From assembly GCF_947242115.1 (NCBI RefSeq), contig NC_074716.1, forward strand, positions 24,048,637 to 24,112,636: DNA of 64,000 nucleotides, read 5' to 3'. Origin of the DNA: Biomphalaria glabrata (taxonomy: Eukaryota). Below the pieces are notes generated by a model. It made no database searches. It was not told where the DNA came from and was given only the letters and a program-made list of their open reading frames with translations. The translations under genes and the position numbers were made by a program. How positions within the stretch are numbered: the first letter of the stretch is position 1; each line of letters begins with the position of its first letter. Shown in pieces: positions 24,533-51,848 of the stretch.

Positions 24533-27500
24533 ACCTTACCTCATATGGGTGCTGTGACATTTCTTTTCTCACCTTACCTCATATGAGTGCTGTGAGAGTT
24601 ATCGTCTCACCTTACATCATATGGGTGGTGTGACATTTCTTTTCTCACCTTACCTCATATGAGTGCTGTGAGAGTTATCGTCTCACCTTACCTCATATGA
24701 GTGCTGTGACAGTTCTTTTCTCACCTTACCTCATATGAGTGCTGTGACAGTTCTCGTCTCACCTTACCTCATATGGGTGCTGTGACAGTTCTCATCTCAC
24801 CTTACCTCATATGAGTGCTGTGACAGTTCTCGTCTCACCTTACCTCATATGGGTGCTGTGACAGTTCTCGTCTCACCTTACCTCATATGGGTGCTGTGAC
24901 AGTTCTCGTCTCACCTTACCTCATATGGGTGCTGTGACAGTTCTCGTCTCACCTTACCTCATATGAGTGCTGTGACAGTTCTCGTCTCACCTTACCTCAT
25001 ATGGGTGCTGTGACAGTTCTTTTCTCACCTTACCTCATATGAGTGCTGTGACAGTTCTCGTCTCACCTTACCTCATATGGGTGCTGTGACAGTTCTCGTC
25101 TCACCTTACCTCATATGGGTGCTGTGACAGTTCTCGTCTCACCTTACCTCATATGGGTGCTGTGACAGTTCTCGTCTCACCTTACCTCATATGGGTGCTG
25201 TGACAGTTCTCGTCTCACCTTACCTCATATGAGTGCTGTGACAGTTCATTTCTCACCTTACCTCATATGGGTGCTGTGACAGTTCTCGTCTCACCTTACC
25301 TCATATGGGTGCTGTGACAGTTCTCGTCTCACCTTACCTCATATGGGTGCTGTGACAGTTCTCGTCTCACCTTACCTCATATGGGTGCTGTGACAGTTCT
25401 TTTCTCACCTTACATCATATGAGTGCTGTGACAGTTCCTCATCTCACCTTACCTCATATGGGTGCTGTGACAGTTCTCGTCTCACCTTACCTCATATGAG
25501 TGCTGTGACAATTCTTTTCTCACCTTACCTCATATGGGTGCTGTGACAGTTCTCGTCTCATCTTACCTCATATGGGTGCTGTGACAGTTCCTCATCTCAC
25601 CTTACCTCATATGGGTGCTGTGACAGTTCCTCATCTCACCTTACCTCCTATGGGTGCTGTGACAGTTCCTCATCTCACCTTACCTCATATGGGTGCTGTG
25701 ACAGTTCCTCATCTCACCTTACCTCATATGGGTGCTGTGACAGTTCCTCATCTCACCTTACCTCATATGAGTGCTGTGACAGTTCTCGTCTCACCTTACC
25801 TCATATGGGTGCTGTGACAGTTCCTCATCTCACCTTACCTCATATGGGTGCTGTGACAGTTCCTCATCTCACCTTACCTCATATGGGTGCTGTGACAGTT
25901 CCTCATCTCACCTTACCTCATATGGGTGCTGTGACAGTTCTCGTCTCACCTTACCTCATATGGGTGCTGTGACAGTTCTTTTCTCACTTTACCTCATATG
26001 GGTGCTGTGACAGTTCCTCATCTCACCTTACCTCATATGGGTGCTGTGACAGTTCCTCATCTCACCTTACCTCATATGGGTGCTGTGACAGTTCTCGTCT
26101 CACCTTACCTCATATGAGTGCTGTGACAGTTCCTCATCTCACCTTACCTCATATGGGTGCTGTGACAGTTCTCGTCTCACCTTACCTCATATGGGTGCTG
26201 TGACAGTTCCTCATCTCACCTTACCTCATATGGGTGCTGTGACAGTTCTCGTCTCACCTTACCTCATATGGGTGCTGTGACAGTTCTTTTCTCACCTTAC
26301 CTCATATTAGTGCTGTGACAGTTCCTCATCTCACCTTACCTCATATGGGTGCTGTGACAGTTCTCGTCTCACCTTACCTCATATGAGTGCTGTGACAGTT
26401 CATTTCTCACCTTACCTCATATGGGTGCTGTGACAGTTCTCGTCTCACCTTACCTCATATGGGTGCTGTGACAGTTCTCGTCTCACCTTACCTCATATGG
26501 GTGCTGTGACAGTTCTCGTCTCACCTTACCTCATATGGGTGCTGTGACAGTTCTTTTCTCACCTTACATCATATGAGTGCTGTGACAGTTCCTCATCTCA
26601 CCTTACCTCATATGGGTGCTGTGACAGTTCTCGTCTCACCTTACCTCATATGAGTGCTGTGACAATTCTTTTCTCACCTTACCTCATATGGGTGCTGTGA
26701 CAGTTCTCGTCTCATCTTACCTCATATGGGTGCTGTGACAGTTCCTCATCTCACCTTACCTCATATGGGTGCTGTGACAGTTCTCGTCTCACCTTACCTC
26801 ATATGGGTGCTGTGACAGTTCCTCATCTCACCTTACCTCATATGGGTGCTGTGACAGTTCCTCATCTCACCTTACCTCATATGGGTGCTGTGACAGTTCC
26901 TCATCTCACCTTACCTCATATGAGTGCTGTGACAGTTCTCGTCTCACCTTACCTCATATGGGTGCTGTGACAGTTCCTCATCTCACCTTACCTCATATGG
27001 GTGCTGTGACAGTTCCTCATCTCACCTTACCTCATATGGGTGCTGTGACAGTTCCTCATCTCACCTTACCTCATATGGGTGCTGTGACAGTTCTCGTCTC
27101 ACCTTACCTCATATGGGTGCTGTGACAGTTCTTTTCTCACTTTACCTCATATGGGTGCTGTGACAGTTCCTCATCTCACCTTACCTCATATGGGTGCTGT
27201 GACAGTTCCTCATCTCACCTTACCTCATATGGGTGCTGTGACAGTTCTCGTCTCACCTTACCTCATATGGGTGCTGTGACAGTTCCTCATCTCACCTTAC
27301 CTCATATGTGTGCTGTGACAGTTCTCGTCTCACCTTACCTCATATGGGTGCTGTGACAGTTCCTCATCTCACCTTACCTCATATGGGTGCTGTGACAGTT
27401 CCTCATCTCACCTTACCTCATATGGGTGCTGTGACAGTTCTCGTCTCACCTTACCTCATATGAGTGCTGTGACAGTTCTTTTCTCACCTTACCTCATATG

Positions 27501-28940
27501 GGTGCTGTGACAGTTCTCGTCTCACCTTACCTCATATGGGTGCTGTGACAGTTCTCGTCTCACCTTACATCATATGGGTGCTGTGACAGTTCTCGTCTCA
27601 CCTTACCTCATATGGGTGCTGTGACAGTTCTCGTCTCACCTTACCTCATATGGGTGCTGTGACAGTTCTTTTCTCACCTTACCTCATATGAGTGCTGTGA
27701 CAGTTCTCGTCTCACCTTACCTCATATGGGTGCTGTGACAGTTCTCGTCTCACCTTACCTCATATGGGTGCTGTGACAGTTCTAGTCTCACCTTACCTCA
27801 TATGGGTGCTGTGACAGTTCTCGTCTCACCTTACCTCATATGGGTGCTGTGACAGTTCTTTTCTCACCTTACCTCATATGAGTGCTGTGACAGTTCTCGT
27901 CTCACCTTACCTCAAATGGGTGCTGTGACAGTTCCTCATCTCACCTTACCTCATATGGGTGCTGTGACAGTTCTCGTCTCACCTTACCTCATATGGGTGC
28001 TGTGACAGTTCCTCATCTCACCTTACCTCATATGGGTGCTGTGACAGTTCCTCATCTCACCTTACCTCATATGGGTGCTGTGACAGTTCCTCATCTCACC
28101 TTACCTCATATGAGTGCTGTGACAGTTCTCGTCTCACCTTACCTCATATGGGTGCTGTGACAGTTCCTCATCTCACCTTACCTCATATGGGTGCTGTGAC
28201 AGTTCCTCATCTCACCTTACCTCATATGGGTGCTGTGACAGTTCCTCATCTCACCTTACCTCATATGGGTGCTGTGACAGTTCTCGTCTCACCTTACCTC
28301 ATATGGGTGCTGTGACAGTTCTTTTCTCACTTTACCTCATATGGGTGCTGTGACAGTTCCTCATCTCACCTTACCTCATATGGGTGCTGTGACAGTTCCT
28401 CATCTCACCTTACCTCATATGGGTGCTGTGACAGTTCTCGTCTCACCTTACCTCATATGGGTGCTGTGACAGTTCCTCATCTCACCTTACCTCATATGGG
28501 TGCTGTGACAGTTCTCGTCTCACCTTACCTCATATGGGTGCTGTGACAGTTCCTCATCTCACCTTACCTCATATGGGTGCTGTGACAGTTCCTCATCTCA
28601 CCTTACCTCATATGGGTGCTGTGACAGTTCTCGTCTCACCTTACCTCATATGGGTGCTGTGACAGTTCCTCATCTCACCTTACCTCATATGGGTGCTGTG
28701 ACAGTTCTCGTCTCACCTTACCTCATATGAGTGCTGTGACAGTTCTCGTCTCACCTTACCTCATATGGGTGCTGTGACAGTTCTCGTCTCACCTTACCTC
28801 ATATGAGTGCTGTGACAGTTCCTCATCTCACCTTACCTCATATGGGTGCTGTGACAGTTCTCGTCTCACCTTACCTCATATGGGTGCTGTGACAGTTCTC
28901 GTCTCACCTTACCTCATATGGGTGCTGTGACAGTTCTCGT
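24533..28940. repeat. Giant minisatellite, 38-bp unit (caccttacctcatatgggtgctgtgacagttctcgtct) x ~116, with three sub-variants (ttctcgtc / tcctcatc / ttcttttc)
   Basis: Direct reading. Interspersion of the variants suggests higher-order structure. Confidence 0.97.
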
Positions 28941-29189
28941 CAACAAATATATTCACTTTCTCCGGTTAGCAGCTGTTCTTAACAGAATATCAAGAGAGAA
29001 GCCGGTCCATTCCTTTACGTCATCTAGCCAGCTTTTGTTTAGGACTCTTTCCTCGTGCTCCCGCCACTGTACGTTGAAGGATGACTGTCGACACTGTGAG
29101 TCATGTCTTGCAATAGGACTGAACCAGCAAAAAAAATAAATGTTACTTGGTTTTAAAATTGTATAGTTTATCCATATTTCCGTTTTAAG

Positions 29190-32566: not shown

Positions 32567-33091
32567 ATGCAGGAACTATGTAATCAGATTACTACACTTA
32601 AAGAGACAAATAAAAATGCAGTTTTTTGGATTATGGGTGATTTCAACCTACCTGATATAAATTGGAAAACACTAACCATAGATAAACACCAAAACCTTAA
32701 GGACATAAATGAGCTTTTCATAGAAACTTTACACAACCTAAGTTTAGATCAAATCATTAAAAAGCCAACTAGATTAAACAACACATTAGATCTCTTCTTA
32801 ACCAACAGACCTGGATTAGTAGTTGATTATGAAATTATCCCTGGTCTATCAGACCATGAGATCATAAAAATACACAGTCAGATAAAAGCAGTAGCCAATA
32901 CAAAACCCAAAAGAAAAATCTTATTCTGGAATAAATGTAACCTGACACAACTACACCAAGCTGCACTAAACTTTCAACAAACATTCTTATTAGAAAAAGA
33001 CATTAACCAACCAGTCGATGACCTCTGGAATTTCATTAAAAACCATCTTAAAAGCATTATAGAAAATCATATACCAACTAAATACACATGA
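32567..33091 (+). CDS. LINE endonuclease (APE-like) domain segment of the retrotransposon ORF
   Basis: AVFWIMGDFNLPDINWKT...LSDHEII, typical of the APE nuclease of non-LTR elements. Confidence 0.75.
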   Translation: MQELCNQITTLKETNKNAVFWIMGDFNLPDINWKTLTIDKHQNLKDINELFIETLHNLSLDQIIKKPTRLNNTLDLFLTNRPGLVVDYEIIPGLSDHEIIKIHSQIKAVANTKPKRKILFWNKCNLTQLHQAALNFQQTFLLEKDINQPVDDLWNFIKNHLKSIIENHIPTKYT

Positions 33092-33322
33092 AACAAAATA
33101 AATAAATGCTGGATTAATAATAGACTAAAGAAGCTTTGTAAACAGAAGGTAAACCTATATAAAAAATTTAAAGAAACTAATGCAGAAAGAGTTTACAAAA
33201 AGTATATAAAAATTAAACACTTAACCCAAAAAGTAAGCAGACAGCTGCAGAGTGAATACATAAACAATGTAATATCTAAAGATAACAACAAAAACCTATG
33301 GTCATACACCAAGTCTAAGACA

Positions 33323-34993
33323 ATGGAAACAACAGGCATAGCGCCATTAAAAGATGAACATAACATAACACATAATGATAATGAAACTAAAGCAAACATC
33401 CTAAACAAATACTTTGCATCAGCATTCTCAGCCCCAGGAGACAAAGACATATTACTGAATTTGAACCAAGTAAACAACATAGAAGATATAGTAGTACAAG
33501 AAAATGGAATTCAAAAACTATTAGCCAACACCAAACCAAATAAAGCTTCTGGACCTGATGGTATTCCAGCTAGATTACTCAAAGAACTAAGCAATGAGCT
33601 AGCCCCAGTGTTCAAAATACTCTTTCAGGCTTCACTTAACCAGGGCAGAGTACCAAAGGACTGGAAAGAAGCTAATGTCACCCCCCTATTTAAAAAAGGA
33701 GAAAAATCTGACCCAGGAAACTACAGACCAGTATCACTTACCAGCATCACATGTAAAATCCTAGAACACATAATATGTAGCAACATCATAAACCACTTAG
33801 ACAAACATAATGTCCTCACACCATACCAACATGGCTTTAGGAAATATAGATCATGTGAAACACAACTAATAGGACTAATTGATGATTTTTCAAAAGGTTT
33901 AGATAATAGTGAACAAATAGATGCTATCTTACTAGATTTTTCTAAGGCTTTTGACAAAGTTCACCACCATAGTTTGCTTAAAAAATTAAAATATTTCGGC
34001 ATTAATGGTCCACTGCATCAGTGGATTAAAGATTTTCTGATAGGGAGAGAACAAACTGTAATAATAAATGGCTCTAAATCAACACCGATAACAGTAAACT
34101 CAGGTGTACCTCAAGGAACAGTCTTGGGTCCACTACTATTTTTAATTTACATAAATGATTTACCAAATTGCATTAGTTCAGGAACAAAAGTCAGATTATT
34201 TGCAGACGATTGCATAATATATAGAACAATAAAAACAACACAAGACACAGATATTTTACAAAGAGAATTAGATGAATTACAGAAATGGGAATCAAATTGG
34301 AGCATGTCTTTCCACCCAGAAAAATGTCAGTTGTTAAGAGTAACAAAAAAACTAAAACAAATTAATTCCACTTATCTTATTCATGGCAAACCAGTAACAC
34401 AGACTAAAAACGCAAAATACCTAGGTGTTATAATAAATGAAAAACTATCATGGAATCCACATATTGATGAAACTACAAAAAAATCAAACAAAGCATTAGG
34501 ATTTATTAAAAGAAATTTCTATAAATCAAATAAGAACATAAAACTAAAATGTTATTTAACCTTGGTTAGGCCAATAATAGAATATGCATCCTCCGTTTGG
34601 GACCCCTCAACTCAAGAAAACATTAAGAAACTGGAACAGACACAAAATAGAGCAGTGAGATTCATAACAAACGAATATTCACATTTGACTAGAGTAACAC
34701 CTTTAGTAAAATCACTAAATTTAGAAAGCCTTCAGGACAGAAGGCTCAAAAGTAAAGTAGCAATCATACATAAAACACTGAACCATAATCTTCAAATACA
34801 AAAACAAAATTTAATAAAATACTCTGAAAGACACAAAGATAAAGGCACATTCCTCGTCCCATATGCTAGGACAAATTTGTACAAATACTCCTTCTTCCCT
34901 AGTGCTATTAGAGCATGGAATGGGTTGCCTGAGCTAGCAAGGAAAACCAGTGACTTGGCAGAATTTAAGTCATTGGTTAATATGCATGACTAA
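33323..34993 (+). CDS. LINE reverse transcriptase domain (556-aa intact ORF segment)
   Basis: Conserved RT blocks including the FADD variant of YXDD and the CR1/RTE-type C-terminal region. Confidence 0.85.
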   Translation: METTGIAPLKDEHNITHNDNETKANILNKYFASAFSAPGDKDILLNLNQVNNIEDIVVQENGIQKLLANTKPNKASGPDGIPARLLKELSNELAPVFKILFQASLNQGRVPKDWKEANVTPLFKKGEKSDPGNYRPVSLTSITCKILEHIICSNIINHLDKHNVLTPYQHGFRKYRSCETQLIGLIDDFSKGLDNSEQIDAILLDFSKAFDKVHHHSLLKKLKYFGINGPLHQWIKDFLIGREQTVIINGSKSTPITVNSGVPQGTVLGPLLFLIYINDLPNCISSGTKVRLFADDCIIYRTIKTTQDTDILQRELDELQKWESNWSMSFHPEKCQLLRVTKKLKQINSTYLIHGKPVTQTKNAKYLGVIINEKLSWNPHIDETTKKSNKALGFIKRNFYKSNKNIKLKCYLTLVRPIIEYASSVWDPSTQENIKKLEQTQNRAVRFITNEYSHLTRVTPLVKSLNLESLQDRRLKSKVAIIHKTLNHNLQIQKQNLIKYSERHKDKGTFLVPYARTNLYKYSFFPSAIRAWNGLPELARKTSDLAEFKSLVNMHD

Positions 34994-46110: not shown

Positions 46111-46477
46111 TTGTTCTTTAATTCTAACAGTTACTTAAGGGTCTTAAAATAAATTCATTAACATATTGTTTTATTTTGTTACGTAACAAATATCCAGATC
46201 CTTTTCCCCTTGTAACTAATCATAACAAATGTTTATACCTCTATCCCCTTGTAACTAATTGTAGTGATGGGCAAAAGTTAACTAAAAAGTTGCTAACTTT
46301 TAGTTTAACTAAAAAAAATTAGTTAAGGCCAAAGTTTAATTAAAAAAAAAAGTCTAGTTAAAATCCTAGTTTAATTTTTTTTTTTTAGTTACAAACTAAA
46401 AAATTTAATTACAAATTTTACAAACTTTTTTAACATACATACCAATAAATATTTAGATCTATGCAATTTGGAGAATA

Positions 46478-46707
46478 TATTGTAATAACATAAGTGAGGC
46501 AACTCAACGAGGACATACACGTTTATTTACATAGAGACATGACAAACACAAAGGGCATCTGCCTTGAGTACACCATCTCCATATTGGCTCTCTCCTTGGG
46601 AGGAAATCGTTAGTCTCTTCATGTCAACATCCTGTTCTAGTTTGGTTACTAGAAGTGCGCATCTCTGCACTAGCCTGGATGGTGGTGCGCATGGCAAAGT
46701 CATAACA
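46478..46707. repeat. Direct repeat copy 1 (~230 bp) immediately 3-prime of the SAP ORF
   Basis: Near-identical to 48253-48502 (attgtaataac...gtgaggcaactcaacgaggacata...ggcaaagtcataaca). Confidence 0.85.
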
Positions 46708-46718
46708 TTGCCCCCGTC

Positions 46719-48203
46719 TTAGCACTTTTCGTCCCGAAAAGAAACACTGCAGTGGAGCTTTGACAGTTCAGGTGGAGGTCGATCTGTGGGAACCACAGAC
46801 GTTAGGGTGCCTGTTGCCCACAAATCCATCTGCACAGTTTCCCGTGGTCGTCGCTTCCTCTTCTTCCAGTTGGCAAGTCTACGCTTGAGGAGATATCGTG
46901 GTCGCTGCTTCGACCTCATGACGATAGTCGGTGATGCCAGCCAGCTGACACAGGGAGAGTTAGTGGAGGTCAGGGTTGCCAGCCACGTAACACAAATGGA
47001 TGTTGTGACGATCACCGTAGATTCCAGGGTTGTTGTTCTAAGACGCTGAGTCAGCGGACCTTTTCCATAGACGTGTTGTGACACAGTTGTAGGCCCACAG
47101 CTAGCCATGGTTTCAAGCACATAGTCTTTCTCAGCTTCATCTGTAAGGTATGCCCATGAAGCATCCTTGTAATGTTCATCCACCACTACATCAGGTTTCG
47201 CTGGGATTAATTCACCACCGTTCAAGTCACTTTCACTGATGTGGGCAGAAGTACACATTTCTGTCAAGTTCAGGTCTTGTAGCTGGGTTTCTTGGCATGG
47301 GCACTGTCCCCACAGGACGCCGCATATACAGTTCATGTCAATCGCCTGGATGCAATTGCCAAGCATCGAGTTCTCTCTTATGCCGCTGCCAAAGTCAAAT
47401 TCGTTGTTTCTGCCTCGGCCATTGTTGGGGCCCGTATTCGCAATTTCACCCGACGACATCCAAGGCAAGGAATCAGAAACGGTCTTGAGGCTTTCATGGT
47501 TTGAGTTCTTATCAAAGGTACTGACAGATAAACAGAGGTCTTTAAGGTCCATAGCAGCCAGCTTGGACGCAGACCCAACGTTGTCTTGATCTGTCCGGCT
47601 CGTTGCAGGTATACCAGGAACAAAAGTTTCAGGCTCATAACAGACTTCTCTAGTTTCTTCATTTTTTTCTTTTCTTTCAATTCTGTATATCCCATTGATA
47701 TCGCCGCAGCAATCGTTGGCACGTTTCTCGCCATGAAAGTCATCCCCGCCAGACTTGCCCACAACACAGTCACAGACAGCGCTCCAATCCCCAGCGCCTC
47801 CATCACCACTGTTTGTGCAGCCACAGTCCTGACCAGGCAACTGCTCCTTCCCTAACGAGTTTATTCCTCCTTTTGCTAGCGACACAATTTTATCACTTTG
47901 GTCTATTTGGCCTTCTACTTGCAATACACTTTCATCTACTTTACTCCCCATCCTATTAATTTGTGCACGCATTGCATCAATTTCTTCCTGTACCCTGCCA
48001 AAGAACTCAACAATCCCAAGTTCAATTTCAAATGTGTAGGTCTCCGGATCTTCTTCTTCATCGACCAAGGCTTGCCGCAGACGATCCGTGAGCGTTTCCC
48101 TGCTACCGAGGGATTTTAAACCTAGATCTAGGTCCCGAAGCTCTTGTCGTAGCTCTTTAATTGAGAGCTGATGTAATACCTTCAAATATGTCATTGTAAT
48201 CAA
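46719..48203 (-). CDS. 494-codon ORF (first ATG at 48194, 491 aa). Has an N-terminal SAP-like motif (LSIKELRQELRDLDLGLKSLGSRETLTDRLRQAL), an acidic region, Cys clusters, and a basic NLS-like C-terminus (KRRLANWKKRKRRPR). Function unknown
   Basis: Long uninterrupted ORF on the minus strand inside the hAT-like element. No BED finger, DDE or hATC motifs are recognisable. Confidence 0.5.
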   Translation of the reverse strand: MITMTYLKVLHQLSIKELRQELRDLDLGLKSLGSRETLTDRLRQALVDEEEDPETYTFEIELGIVEFFGRVQEEIDAMRAQINRMGSKVDESVLQVEGQIDQSDKIVSLAKGGINSLGKEQLPGQDCGCTNSGDGGAGDWSAVCDCVVGKSGGDDFHGEKRANDCCGDINGIYRIERKEKNEETREVCYEPETFVPGIPATSRTDQDNVGSASKLAAMDLKDLCLSVSTFDKNSNHESLKTVSDSLPWMSSGEIANTGPNNGRGRNNEFDFGSGIRENSMLGNCIQAIDMNCICGVLWGQCPCQETQLQDLNLTEMCTSAHISESDLNGGELIPAKPDVVVDEHYKDASWAYLTDEAEKDYVLETMASCGPTTVSQHVYGKGPLTQRLRTTTLESTVIVTTSICVTWLATLTSTNSPCVSWLASPTIVMRSKQRPRYLLKRRLANWKKRKRRPRETVQMDLWATGTLTSVVPTDRPPPELSKLHCSVSFRDEKC

Positions 48204-48252
48204 AGCCTACCTCCTCTCGTTGAGTTGCCAATAATCCCACTTCTGACAACCA

Positions 48253-48502
48253 ATTGTAATAACTTAAGTGAGGCAACTCAACGAGGACATAGACGTTTAT
48301 TTACATAGAGACATGACAAACACAAAGGGCATCTGCCTTGAGTACAGCATCTCCATATTAGCTCTCTCCTTGGGCGGAAATCGTTAGTCTCTTCATGTCA
48401 ACATCCTGTTCTAGTTTGGTTACTAGTAATTACTAGAAGTTACTAGAAGTGCGCATCTCTGTACTAACCTGGATGGTGGTGCGCATGGCAAAGTCATAAC
48501 AA
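48253..48502. repeat. Direct repeat copy 2 (~250 bp) 49 bp 5-prime of the SAP ORF
   Basis: See copy 1. Contains a small tactagaagt expansion. Confidence 0.85.
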
Positions 48503-48699
48503 TATATAATGGATAATAGAGAGGAGAATAAACTAGAGGGTGCAGGTCACTAGAAAGCCTTTTGACCTTTACCTTATAATGGTCGCTATTCCCGCCAATT
48601 CAAGGTATTTGAAAGGCGAGAAAAATAAACGTGTTCATTATATTTCTAGCAAGTTTCGCTGCTTGATAAATCCCGATAATTCCTTGCTTCTATAGATCT

Positions 48700-49500
48700 A
48701 CATTTTGCAGCTTTTTATTAAACTCCAGAATTTAGCTTTACTATAGATCTAAAAGAAATGTCGACTCTTTTTATTTTAAAACTTTTTACTAGATAGATCT
48801 AGAGTTAGAGTCTAGTGAAGTCTAGCCTATTAGTATTAGACTATTACTACTATTAGATCTATAGTCTATAATAATCTATATTTAATTATTTAAGTCTCTT
48901 AGTCTTAAGTAGAGTCTAACTCTTAGTAGGCCTAGTCTTAGTCTTAGATCTAGAAAATCTAGATGTAAATTTAAAATTATAAGTAAATAATATAGATCTA
49001 TTAATTGGTTTAGAGATTATACAATATAAAATTAGAGTCTAGATATATCTAGATTACTTATTATACTTAAGACCTGAGATGCATAGATGATAGATCTATA
49101 ATGAGTGACTATAATACTAATAATAGTCGTCACTATACTAGATCTAATACTAAATTAACTAAATCTAGACTAGATCTACATCTACTTCTATTATAATTAT
49201 ACTTATATCTACTATCTAGATTCTAGATCTATTAGATCTAGTATTATCTACTAGAGTATATAGACATAGATCTAAATACCCATATCTAGTTATAATCATA
49301 ATTATAATAATCTAAAATCTCTAGATCAAGAGTTACTAAGATATCTACTAGACTCTATCTAGATTTTAGATCATCTAGTAGTAGTAGTAGTAGTAACTAG
49401 TATTTCTTAGATTATTTTTAGATCTAGGTCTAGTAGTAGCTAGATCTAATTCTAGATCCAGATTATATTTCTGATCATTTCGTTTGTAGAAGATATTAGA
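48700..49500. repeat. Low-complexity tagatcta / tctaga-rich palindromic tract
   Basis: Dense recurrence of agatct, tctaga and tagtag. Similar tracts at 58300-58480. Confidence 0.8.
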
Positions 49501-50013
49501 TCCAGAATATTCTAGAACCTAGAGTCTAGAGTTAATTAGAGAGTCAACATGCAGTTTTATCATTACTTCTAAAGGTAACAATTACTTCTAATTTCTTTCT
49601 ATAATAGTATCATTCTAGTGATTCTATTAAGATCTACATCTATCCCATAAAGACATTTAAATCTTTTTTCATGTGCACAAATAAATGTTTATTACATTTT
49701 GCTAAAGAGATTGGTTGTTGTTTATATTTTTCATGTTTGGCTGTTTTGTCCTTAAAAAGGTCAAAATAGTTAGTAAAAGTTTAACTAAAGTTTCTTAGTT
49801 TAGTTTAACTAATTTTTTTCAATTTGTGATTAACTAAAAGTTTAATTACTTTTTTTTAGTTCAAACTTAGTTTTAGTTTAACTAAAAAAATTTAGTTTAG
49901 TTCCCATCACTAACTAATTGTAACAAAAGTTTATACCTCCATCCCCTCCCCCTTTCAGGCGTTTCGTAATATCCAAACGTTCCGTTACTTCGAACTTTTT
50001 TTTTTGGTGAACA

Positions 50014-51848
50014 ATGAGTTAATGAGTGAGTGAGTTAATGAGCTAGTGAATTAATGAGCTAGTGAGTTAATGAGTGGGGGAGTTAATGAGCTAATGAGTT
50101 AATGAGCTAGTGAGTTAATGAGATAGTGAGTTAATGAGCTAGTGAGTTAATGAGTGGGTGAGTTAATGAGCTAGTGAGTTAATAAGTGGGTGAGCTAATA
50201 AGCTAGTGAGTTAATGAGTGGGTGAGTTAATGAGCTAGTGAGTTAATGAGCTAAAGAATTAATGAGTGGGTGAGTTAATGAGCTAGTGAGTTAATGAGTG
50301 GGTAAGTTAATGAGTGGGTGAGTTAATGAGTGGGTGAGTTAATGAGCTAGTGAGTTAATGAGCTAGTGAGTTAATGAGCTAGTGAGTTAATGAGCTAATG
50401 AGTTAATGAGCTAGTGAGTTAATGAGCTAAAGAATTAATGAGTGGGTGAGTTAATGAGCTAGTGAGTTAATGAGTGGGTAAGTTAATAAGTGGGTGAGTA
50501 AATGAGTGGGTGAGTTAATGAGCTAGTAAGTTAATGAGCTAGTGAGTTAATGAGCTAGTGAGTTAATGAGCTAGTGAGTTAATGAGTGGGTGAGTTAATG
50601 AGCTAGTGAGTTAATGAGTGAATGAGCTAGTGAGTTAATGAGTGGGTGAGTTAATGAGTGGGTGAGTTAATAGGTTAGTGAGTTAATGAGTTGGTGAGTT
50701 AATGAGCTAGTGAGTTAATGAGTGGGTGAGTTAATGAGTGGGTGAGTCAATGAGCTAGTGAGTTAATGAGTGGGTGAGTTAATGAGTGGGTGAGTTAATG
50801 AGCTAATGAGTTAATGAGTGGGTGAGTTAATGAACTAGTGAGTAAATGAGCTAGTAAGTTAATGAGTGGGTGAGTTAATGAGCTAGTGAGTTAATGAGCT
50901 AGTGAGTTAATGAGTGGGTGAGTTAATGAGTGGGTGAAGTAATAAGCTAGTGAGTTAATGAGTGGGTGAGTTAATGAACTAGTGAGTTAATGAGCTAGTG
51001 AGTTAATGAGCTAGTGAGTTAATGAGCTAGTGAGTTAATGAGTGGGTGAGTTAATGAACTAGTAAGTAAATAAGTGGGTGAGTTAATGAGCTAGTGAGTT
51101 AATGAGTGGGTGAGTTAATAAGCTAGGGAGTTAATGAGTGGGTGAGTTAATGAGTGGGTGAGTTAATGAGCTAGTGAGTTAAAGAGCTAAAGAATTAATG
51201 AGTGGATGAATTAATGAGCTAGTGAGTTAATGAGTGGGTGAGTTAATGAGTGGGTGAGTTAATGAGCTAGTGAGTTAATGAGCTAGTGAGTTAATTAGCT
51301 AGTGATTTAATGAGTGGGTGAGTTAATGAGCTAGTGAGTTAATGAGTGGGTGAGTTAATGAGCTAGTGAGTTAATGAGCTAGTGAGTTAATGAGTGGGTG
51401 AGTTAATGAGCTAATGAGTTAATGAGTGGGTGAGTTAATGAGTGGGTTAGTTAATGAGTGGGTGAGTTAATGAGTGGGTGAGTTAATGAGCTAGTGAGTT
51501 AATGAGCTAGTGAGTTAATGAGTGGGTGCGTTAATGAGCTAGTGAGTTAATGAGCTAGTGAGTTAATGAGCTAGTGAGTTAATGAGTGGGTGAGTTAATG
51601 AGCTAGTAAGTTAATGAGTGGGTGAGTTAATGAGTGGGTGAGTTAATGAGCAAGTGAGTTAATGAGTGGGTGAGTTAATGAGCTAGCGAGTTAATGAGTG
51701 GATGAGTTAATGAGTGGATGAGTTAATGAGCAATTGAGTTAATGAGTGGGTGAGTTAATGAGCTAGTGAGTCAATGAGTTCCTGAGTTAATGCGTTGGTG
51801 AGTTAGTGAGTAAGATAGTTAGTGATTAAGTTAGTTAGTGAGTTAACA
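50014..51848. repeat. Minisatellite, 16-bp units (gagttaatgagctagt / gagttaatgagtgggt) x ~110
   Basis: Direct reading. Confidence 0.95.

Follow-up and report, generated by a model that had tools for sequence, protein, structure and literature searches.

A probable Ty3/gypsy derivative with a SAP-headed reading frame, nested in a non-autonomous hAT-like element of Biomphalaria glabrata

A 64,000-nucleotide stretch of the Biomphalaria glabrata genome (contig NC_074716.1; hereafter the window, numbered from its first nucleotide) very probably contains two unrelated mobile elements, one nested within the other: a non-autonomous Ty3/gypsy derivative inside a non-autonomous hAT-like element. An initial annotation had described positions 46262-49912 as a recently mobilized hAT-type element carrying an open reading frame (ORF) with a SAP-like motif in place of a transposase, and had offered three explanations for the ORF: a captured or transduplicated host gene, a novel transposase, or a nested element flanked by direct repeats. 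The last of these is the one borne out. The insert is a self-contained long terminal repeat (LTR) retroelement of 2,021 bp on the minus strand (46481-48501) that has its own LTRs, primer-binding site (PBS), polypurine tract (PPT) and 4-bp target-site duplication (TSD), and its position is empty in a paralogous copy of the outer element. The same high probability covers, jointly with the nesting, our sequence-based reading of the ORF as a remodelled Gag, which would have inherited its SAP and coiled-coil head (the first ~60-120 residues) and its final few codons from an autonomous lineage of SAP-Gag elements. A retroelement nested in a DNA transposon is routine, and there is nothing unusual in the nesting. 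The window element does not represent a new class, and it is not a hAT with cargo; a capsid-less Gag head fused to a new body is mildly unusual.

The repeats bracketing the ORF had been described as direct and near-identical, which they are, but their limits are corrected to 46481-46707 and 48255-48501 (Table 1). On the minus strand they have TG...CA termini, and the two differ by 7 substitutions and one 20-bp indel. The long minus-strand ORF was first listed as 494 aa (46719-48203 under the bacterial code), a length that requires a TTG start; the first ATG, at 48194, gives 491 aa. Its stop codon lies 11 bp from the 3′ LTR, as originally stated, but the ATG is 60 bp, not 49 bp, from the 5′ LTR. 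The PPT is followed directly by TGTTAT, the start of the LTR, and this junction is found in all inner-element copies, with GAAGGGGGCAA as the tract in L007, an autonomous relative described below. The PBS was compared with mammalian tRNA-Leu sequences printed in PMC10359600: an exact 19-nt complement of the tRNA-Leu-CAA 3′ end is present in the sister copy at locus L002 and in the autonomous relative L006. The version with one extra T (TGGTTGTCAG...) is common to the window, L003 (9719) and L004 (9719, 11619), inherited despite recent activity. No tRNA-Leu gene was found in the window or in any of the 124 loci. In RNA fold predictions, U5 and the leader form a stem around the LTR end and the PBS, both in the window (z -5.2) and in L003 (z -4.4); L006 has an equivalent PBS-enclosing stem of different sequence (z -3.3). 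Neither the ORF list nor Pfam gave any protease (PR), reverse transcriptase (RT), integrase (IN) or other pol segment in the inner element. Because pol, in the order PR-RT-RNase H-IN, is missing, the element is a derivative of Ty3/gypsy and not an autonomous member of it.

The strongest evidence for nesting comes from locus L003 (B. glabrata BS90), where another copy of the outer element has the same terminal inverted repeats (TIRs) and an 8-bp TSD of its own, TACCTAGG. This copy is uninterrupted exactly at the position of the insert, and removal of window positions 46481-48501 plus one ATAT restores the L003 sequence at the junction exactly. The empty paralogue and the precise restoration of the junction identify the cassette as a later, independent insertion, which would have entered the AT-rich interior of the outer element at an ATAT site. 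An LTR-ORF-LTR unit interrupts the L003 copy at another ATAT site, where the window is uninterrupted; the interior of the outer element has received two independent LTR-element insertions, one in the window and one in L003. ATAT flanks the element on both sides in the window, L003 and L007, and the other copies lie within (AT)n.

In the DNA of homologues five further LTR-ORF-LTR copies were present, at L001, L002, L003 and, twice, L004. All but the L003 copy (4/5) sit in (AT)n microsatellites outside any TIR element, which settles the proposed check of whether the repeat-ORF-repeat unit occurs outside hAT termini. The L004 copies (9488-11357 and 11388-13490) are two full elements arranged head to tail, 30 bp apart, in one (AT)n tract, which suggests that one microsatellite was hit repeatedly. 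The L003 LTRs differ by a single substitution, compared with 7 in 227 bp in the window, and the inner family has therefore been active recently. Reading the whole locus instead as a hAT-type element whose internal cargo is a captured or transduplicated gene, or a new transposase, would account for an ORF that lies between perfect TIRs and a TSD where no canonical transposase is present. This is extremely improbable. LTRs, PBS, PPT and TSD all belong to the insert itself; at L003 the paralogous TIR element is empty at that position, which refutes the cargo reading; most other copies of the insert lie outside TIR elements; the head of the ORF is retrotransposon Gag; and there is no DDE, BED or hATC signal and no folded catalytic domain predicted in a low-confidence model. 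Pack-type capture or transduplication was rejected on the first two of these grounds. Neither a captured host gene within the hAT element nor a novel transposase is supported; the ORF begins as a retrotransposon Gag.

The Gag assignment comes from a profile of full-length family members searched with HMMER against 1.84 billion representative proteins. Beyond fragments of the family itself, the longer matches cover only profile positions ~1-100, and the matched proteins are arranged as SAP - coiled coil - Retrotrans_gag - zf-CCHC. B. glabrata itself encodes one of them, P0081, together with its paralogue P0197, which has SAP and zf-CCHC and is apparently an intact SAP-Gag. The gag genes P0198 and P0199 stand directly upstream of pol ORFs in the PR-RT-RNase H-IN order of Ty3/gypsy, an order present in the relatives L005, L006 and L007. 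By BLASTP, residues 1-119 of the window ORF align with the P0199 Gag at 38% identity (E 1e-19), and hhalign matches the family to SAP-Gag with 99.5% probability, over the first 60 columns only. Profile-profile comparison found no counterpart in the family for the capsid and nucleocapsid parts of SAP-Gag.

The same lineage shares every cis feature of the window element. L007 is a complete autonomous relative of ~5.5 kb with 300-bp LTRs that are 100% identical, start with TGTTATAAC and end with TTATTACA. Its PBS, TGGTGTCAGGAGTGGGAT, lies one base past the LTR and is the complement of the tRNA-Leu-CAG 3′ end (PMC10359600); the TAA stop codon of its pol adjoins the PPT and the LTR start TGTTAT, and its flanks are ATAT/ATAT. 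Aligned by eye, the window and L007 match at 30 of 38 nt in the segment that runs from the last codons through the PPT into the LTR. Autonomous SAP-Gag Ty3/gypsy elements in general (L005, L006, L007; P0081, P0197; beetle KAJ8957289.1) resemble the window element in LTR termini (TGTTAT...TTATTACA), in a tRNA-Leu PBS located 1-2 nt past the LTR, in the PBS-enclosing stem, in the 4-bp ATAT TSD, in a stop codon that adjoins the PPT GA(A/C)GGGGGCAA, and in the N-terminal 60-120 residues of the first ORF. They differ from it in what the 2.0-kb window element lacks: capsid, nucleocapsid, protease, RT, RNase H and integrase. A search for homology between the C-terminus of the ORF and that of integrase returned only a weak end-to-end alignment (E 7.9), and this segment was treated as conserved cis sequence rather than as protein homology.

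The encoded protein consists of a SAP region (residues ~5-45), an acidic linker, a long helix or coiled coil (59-111), a Cys-rich, acidic and predicted-disordered stretch (112-430), a basic tail (RRLANWKKRKRRPR) and a conserved end (PTDRPPPELSKLHCSVSFRDEKC). The SAP-like motif noted at the outset is solid across the family: Pfam SAP matches were obtained for 12 of 14 related N-termini (best E 6e-11), and the family profile matches the solved SAP domains 1zrj, 2kvu and 2do1 (E ~1e-6 to 4e-7). At the level of the family, sequence comparison identifies the N-terminus as a true SAP domain. The window copy itself scores below the Pfam cut-off (PF02037, 11.2 bits against a gathering threshold of 23.9; E 0.31), because a 6-nt insertion adds 2 residues to its SAP loop. 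Pfam gave no significant match of any kind in the window ORF, gag and hAT transposase signatures included, in agreement with the initial annotation as regards the latter. An AlphaFold2 model from 14 sequences places helices at 12-21 and 32-47 in the SAP region (predicted local distance difference test, pLDDT, 60-75) and one long helix at 59-111, and leaves residues 112 to ~430 with no predicted structure; the mean pLDDT is 39. "Disordered" is therefore a weak statement. No helical capsid-like fold was predicted in this low-confidence model.

Conserved across the family are the SAP head, a DQDNVGSA..KP.A.DLKD motif, a basic NW(R/K)KRKR tail and a C-terminal PTDRPPP... segment beside the PPT. 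The basic tail had been flagged earlier as resembling a nuclear localization signal; it is indeed present, and the signal function is putative. The Cys clusters, also reported, occur in the window ORF but are limited to some subfamilies, with P0045 and P0047 lacking them. Protein searches gave 47 homologues, all from B. glabrata or B. pfeifferi. Family members (P0001-P0047, B. glabrata BS90) are annotated as 'alpha-actinin A', 'ATP-dependent RNA helicase DHX29', 'protocadherin Fat 3', 'uncharacterized protein' and similar. Many of these gene models start at an internal Met and omit the SAP head, for example P0014, the true start of which is at L003 9774.

Two further observations concern repeats within the ORF. 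In one subfamily a 60-nt (20-aa) unit, TEVCYVPEADVPVVPVTSTL, is repeated in tandem 1 to 7 times (L003 10280-10620; L004 10280-10520 and 12210-12650), and the copy number varies among otherwise near-identical elements. A Ty1/copia origin was considered on account of matches of several homologues to PF22936 (Pol_BBD) and rejected: the matches are faint, they coincide with the 20-aa tandem repeat, and no pol follows. The 6-nt insertion in the SAP loop creates, at window 48113-48134 (minus strand), the 22-mer GACCTAGATCTAGGTTTAAAAT, which is identical to the core of a 46-bp tandem repeat at window 6550-6810, 40 kb away, where 4 exact copies occur. L001 and L002 do not have the insertion, yet share most of its 7+9 nt flanks with one mismatch each. 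The insertion could be a templated patch or a coincidence.

Remodelling of an ancestral SAP-Gag would have replaced the capsid and zinc-knuckle domains with ~350 residues that are Cys-rich, acidic and predicted to be disordered, plus the basic tail. The term "remodelled Gag" accordingly describes the ends and not the whole protein, because residues ~120-470 are of unassigned origin. One source for this middle part would be a host coding segment captured by a gypsy element, giving a Gag-host fusion as in retroviral transduction. The restriction of the match with the autonomous lineage to the first 60-120 residues and the last few codons would suit such a fusion, as would the different character of the middle, with its Cys clusters and acidic tracts. 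In the HMMER search, however, the middle part matched only family members or their fragments; all family members looked up are from Biomphalaria; and LTRs flank 6/6 copies whose DNA was read, a count that does not include the RefSeq-locus members. We regard host capture as rather improbable.

Five of six copies have an intact ORF with common start and stop points; the sixth, L001, has a premature stop. Between subfamilies, the ratio of nonsynonymous to synonymous substitution rates (dN/dS) is 0.43-0.54 at dS ~0.6-0.75. Several observations weigh against the picture drawn so far. Among close copies within a subfamily dN/dS is 0.6-0.9, a range that neutral decay of inserted copies would produce. 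With its 2-aa SAP-loop insertion and 1-nt PBS insertion, the window copy may be impaired. Robust Gag homology is limited to the first 60 residues, and the structure model is a poor one. Biomphalaria itself yielded no autonomous partner whose LTRs match, and the best 120 matches in a search with the L006 pol were all proteins of other animals, none of Biomphalaria. For the outer element, the features that speak for hAT membership are TIRs and TSDs and nothing else. The two ranges of dN/dS, taken together, fit selection on the ORF during the active phase of the elements and neutral decay once they have inserted.

The inner element must be copied by the enzymes of autonomous Ty3/gypsy elements, because its own protease, RT and integrase are missing. 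It would be mobilized in trans by the RT and integrase of the SAP-Gag gypsy lineage, and its ATAT target would therefore be explained. What the ORF contributes may be nothing: the element might move purely as an RNA template, in the manner of TRIM (terminal-repeat retrotransposon in miniature) or LARD (large retrotransposon derivative) elements, with the ORF a functionless leftover that looks conserved since the copies are young. The within-subfamily ratios, the L001 stop, the 20-aa unit that varies freely from 1 to 7 copies, and a mostly predicted-disordered protein with no relatives outside the genus are all in keeping with this. But subfamilies at dS ~0.7 and with 27-55% protein identity all keep one ORF, its start ~55 nt past the PBS and its stop at the PPT are the same in all of them, dN/dS between them is ~0.45, and all but one of the six copies are intact; a functionless ORF is for these reasons unlikely. 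A quite improbable alternative is inhibition: as a truncated Gag head, the protein would poison the assembly of autonomous elements, as do Ty1 p22 or Fv1-type restriction factors. The ORF is under selection and keeps precisely the Gag part likely to multimerize, the coiled coil, with no capsid; against this, its source is a multicopy, recently transposing, LTR-flanked element that depends on the machinery to be inhibited, and not a fixed single-copy host locus.

Our preferred, though tentative, reading is that the protein would benefit its own RNA by joining helper particles via the common SAP and coiled-coil head, while the basic tail would bind nucleic acid or direct nuclear import. A more far-reaching reading, which we hold to be rather unlikely, is that of a so far undescribed, semi-autonomous kind of retroelement whose protein, free of capsid and nucleocapsid yet selected, would serve as an adaptor. 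Its head would dock the RNA-protein complex of the parasite into helper particles or onto chromatin rich in AT, and RNA binding would fall to the new Cys-rich and basic body. If correct, this would be a protein-level hijacking strategy among LTR retrotransposons, and it would provide the first functional clue to the SAP domain on the Gag N-terminus, namely chromatin tethering of the kind performed by the chromatin-binding parts of foamy-virus Gag or murine leukemia virus p12.

The outer element was correctly recognized from its ends. The perfect 10-bp TIRs, perfect 8-bp TSD and subterminal repeats claimed for it are all in the sequence, and the TIR 10-mer with its complement has just 2 occurrences in the window, at the two ends, against 0.03 expected. 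For the subterminal motif AGTTTAACTAAA, 1.6 matches would be expected in the window and 10 are present, 8 of which fall within ~140 bp of one or the other end of the element. Subtraction of the insert and one ATAT leaves an element of 1,626 bp. The left TSD target sits in a 39-bp tandem unit at 46184-46259. No ORF of at least 60 aa is present in the outer element apart from the insert, the right arm and interior (48506-49912) included, and no further copies of the TIRs or of the direct repeats were found elsewhere in the window. Relative to the L003 copy, the left arm is 96% identical (L003 12263-12482) and the right arm and interior 79-83%. With the two Biomphalaria copies only 79-96% identical from segment to segment, recent mobility of the outer element, asserted in the initial annotation, is not demonstrated. 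The palindrome TAGATCTA is concentrated in the interior, 14 of 28 window occurrences falling within 1.26 kb (48506-49760), and its core AGATCT has a similar density in the L003 copy (8900-9480, 11600-12260).

The TIRs and TSD belong to a real transposon family that makes 8-bp TSDs, of which L003 holds another copy. The 21-nt terminus of the element is matched exactly in 117 JGI metagenome contigs (L008-L124; Ga0209364, Ga0056xxx, Ga0049xxx, Ga0066xxx, Ga0126xxx and others). These contain copies of 280-850 bp that resemble miniature inverted-repeat transposable elements (MITEs), with YAGTGATGGGCA termini and 75-83% identity to the window element over the terminal ~150 bp. Five copies have perfect 8-bp TSDs (L064, L077, L074, L039 and L112), and in two others (L036 and L079) the TSDs match at 7 of 8 positions. 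The contigs that share the terminus are 42% GC and have eukaryote-like genes. The series presumably derives from metagenomes of gutless marine worm symbionts; if the worm origin is true, the outer transposon family spans phyla or has moved by horizontal transfer. Neither a transposase (no relevant ORF of at least 200 aa) nor the SAP-ORF element was present in the 117 metagenome loci, and the window and the Biomphalaria loci examined likewise gave no copy with a transposase.

The TIRs of hAT elements begin with 5′-YARNG, as do the short TIRs here (TAGTGATGGG/CAGTGATGGGCA), and 8-bp TSDs accompany at least 7 copies in the window, L003 and the metagenomes. On these sequence features the outer element is a non-coding, non-autonomous DNA transposon of ~1.6 kb, for which hAT-like serves as a label; it would move only with transposase supplied from elsewhere. 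It resembles non-autonomous hAT elements and MITEs in its 8-bp TSDs, YAGTG TIR starts, subterminal short repeats and lack of coding capacity. It is unlike Ac-type hAT elements, the TSD consensus of which is nTnnnnAn, in that its seven TSDs do not fit, and its termini differ from the TIRs of the SPIN-like hAT of B. glabrata. The B. glabrata genome paper reported that DNA transposons are old and that none has an intact transposase, and it listed a SPIN-like hAT, of which it prints no sequence (PMC5440852).

Table 1. Positions of the parts of the outer hAT-like element and the inner LTR retroelement in the window
Feature	Position	Strand	Description
Left TSD of outer element	46254..46261		8 bp, ACTAATTG
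Left TIR	46262..46273	+	TAGTGATGGG(CA); 10-bp core 46262-46271; family consensus YAGTGATGGGCA
Outer element, left arm	46262..46476		AGTTTAACTAAA subterminal repeats at 46299-46344
Inner-element TSD, copy 1	46477..46480		ATAT; the L003 empty site has one ATAT fewer
3′ LTR	46481..46707	-	227 bp; minus strand TGTTATGAC...GTTATTACA; contains AATAAA
PPT	46708..46718	-	GACGGGGGCAA; between stop codon and 3′ LTR, adjoining both
ORF	46719..48194	-	491 aa from ATG
Leader arm	48213..48229	-	GGCAACTCAACGAGAGG; pairs with the U5 end of the 5′ LTR, CCTCGTTGAGTTGCC
PBS	48233..48252	-	TGGTTGTCAGAAGTGGGATT; 2 nt past the 5′ LTR; complement of the tRNA-Leu(CAA) 3′ end plus one extra T
5′ LTR	48255..48501	-	247 bp; 20-bp internal duplication with no counterpart in the 3′ LTR
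Inner-element TSD, copy 2	48502..48505		ATAT
Outer element, right arm and interior	48506..49912		AT-rich, many TAGATCTA palindromes; subterminal repeats 49778-49886
Right TIR	49901..49912	-	+ strand reads TTCCCATCACTA; 10-bp core 49903-49912, CCCATCACTA
Right TSD of outer element	49913..49920		8 bp, ACTAATTG

Elsewhere in the window, a satellite of ~1.8 kb, TGAGTTAATGAGCTAG, begins ~100 bp downstream of the outer element (50015-51843); it has a 16-bp unit with an 8-bp sub-period, ~113 copies and a GC skew of +0.7 to +0.8. A non-LTR (long interspersed nuclear element, LINE) remnant occupies 32567-34993 on the plus strand, in which an endonuclease ORF (Exo_endo_phos_2, E 6e-9) precedes a 556-aa RT ORF (RVT_1, E 5e-40). 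A 4-kb block at 25000-29000 has a GC content of 0.48 against ~0.35 around it, a GC skew of -0.2, an AT skew of -0.33 and no ORF of at least 150 aa.

In plants, some non-autonomous LTR elements have retained gag; these are called TR-GAG elements, for terminal-repeat retrotransposons with a GAG domain (PMC13570524). Like TR-GAG, TRIM and LARD elements, the window element is short and LTR-bounded, has a PBS and a PPT, no pol and one gag-derived ORF, and is presumed to be mobilized in trans by a related autonomous element. It differs from TR-GAG in coming from an animal, a gastropod, and in an ORF that keeps only the N-terminal SAP and coiled-coil module next to the ~350 residues of unassigned origin; because the ORF has neither capsid domain nor zinc knuckle, the element falls outside the TR-GAG definition. 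Drosophila errantiviruses and their two-ORF derivatives use the palindromic 4-bp targets TATA, CGCG or ATAT (PMC5408687), and the window element likewise duplicates a palindromic 4-bp target, ATAT; unlike them it is found in a snail, a different host phylum, has no env that we could see, and has a tRNA-Leu PBS. Named matches in the L006 pol search include 'transposon 412' and 'erranti-like virus'. These names point the same way, and the errantivirus placement of the autonomous relatives, drawn from names transferred by annotation, is tentative. No description of a SAP-bearing retrotransposon Gag was found in the searchable literature, where SAP is mentioned in connection with mobile elements only for a Penelope-like element and Zisupton DNA transposons.

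These results document a Ty3/gypsy lineage, likewise with no description found in that literature, in which Gag starts with a SAP domain, the PBS is complementary to tRNA-Leu and integration is strictly at ATAT, together with a genus-restricted non-autonomous offshoot that has a selected ORF with no capsid domain. For annotation, the SAP-ORF family in Biomphalaria assemblies should be masked as a transposable element, and the apparent cargo-bearing hAT element is a nesting artefact. If the ORF protein assists its own mobilization, the range of helper parasitism by non-autonomous retroelements would be broader. Given the nearly identical L003 LTRs, activity of the inner family may be continuing in a snail vector of medical relevance, and its insertion polymorphisms are therefore potentially useful as strain markers.

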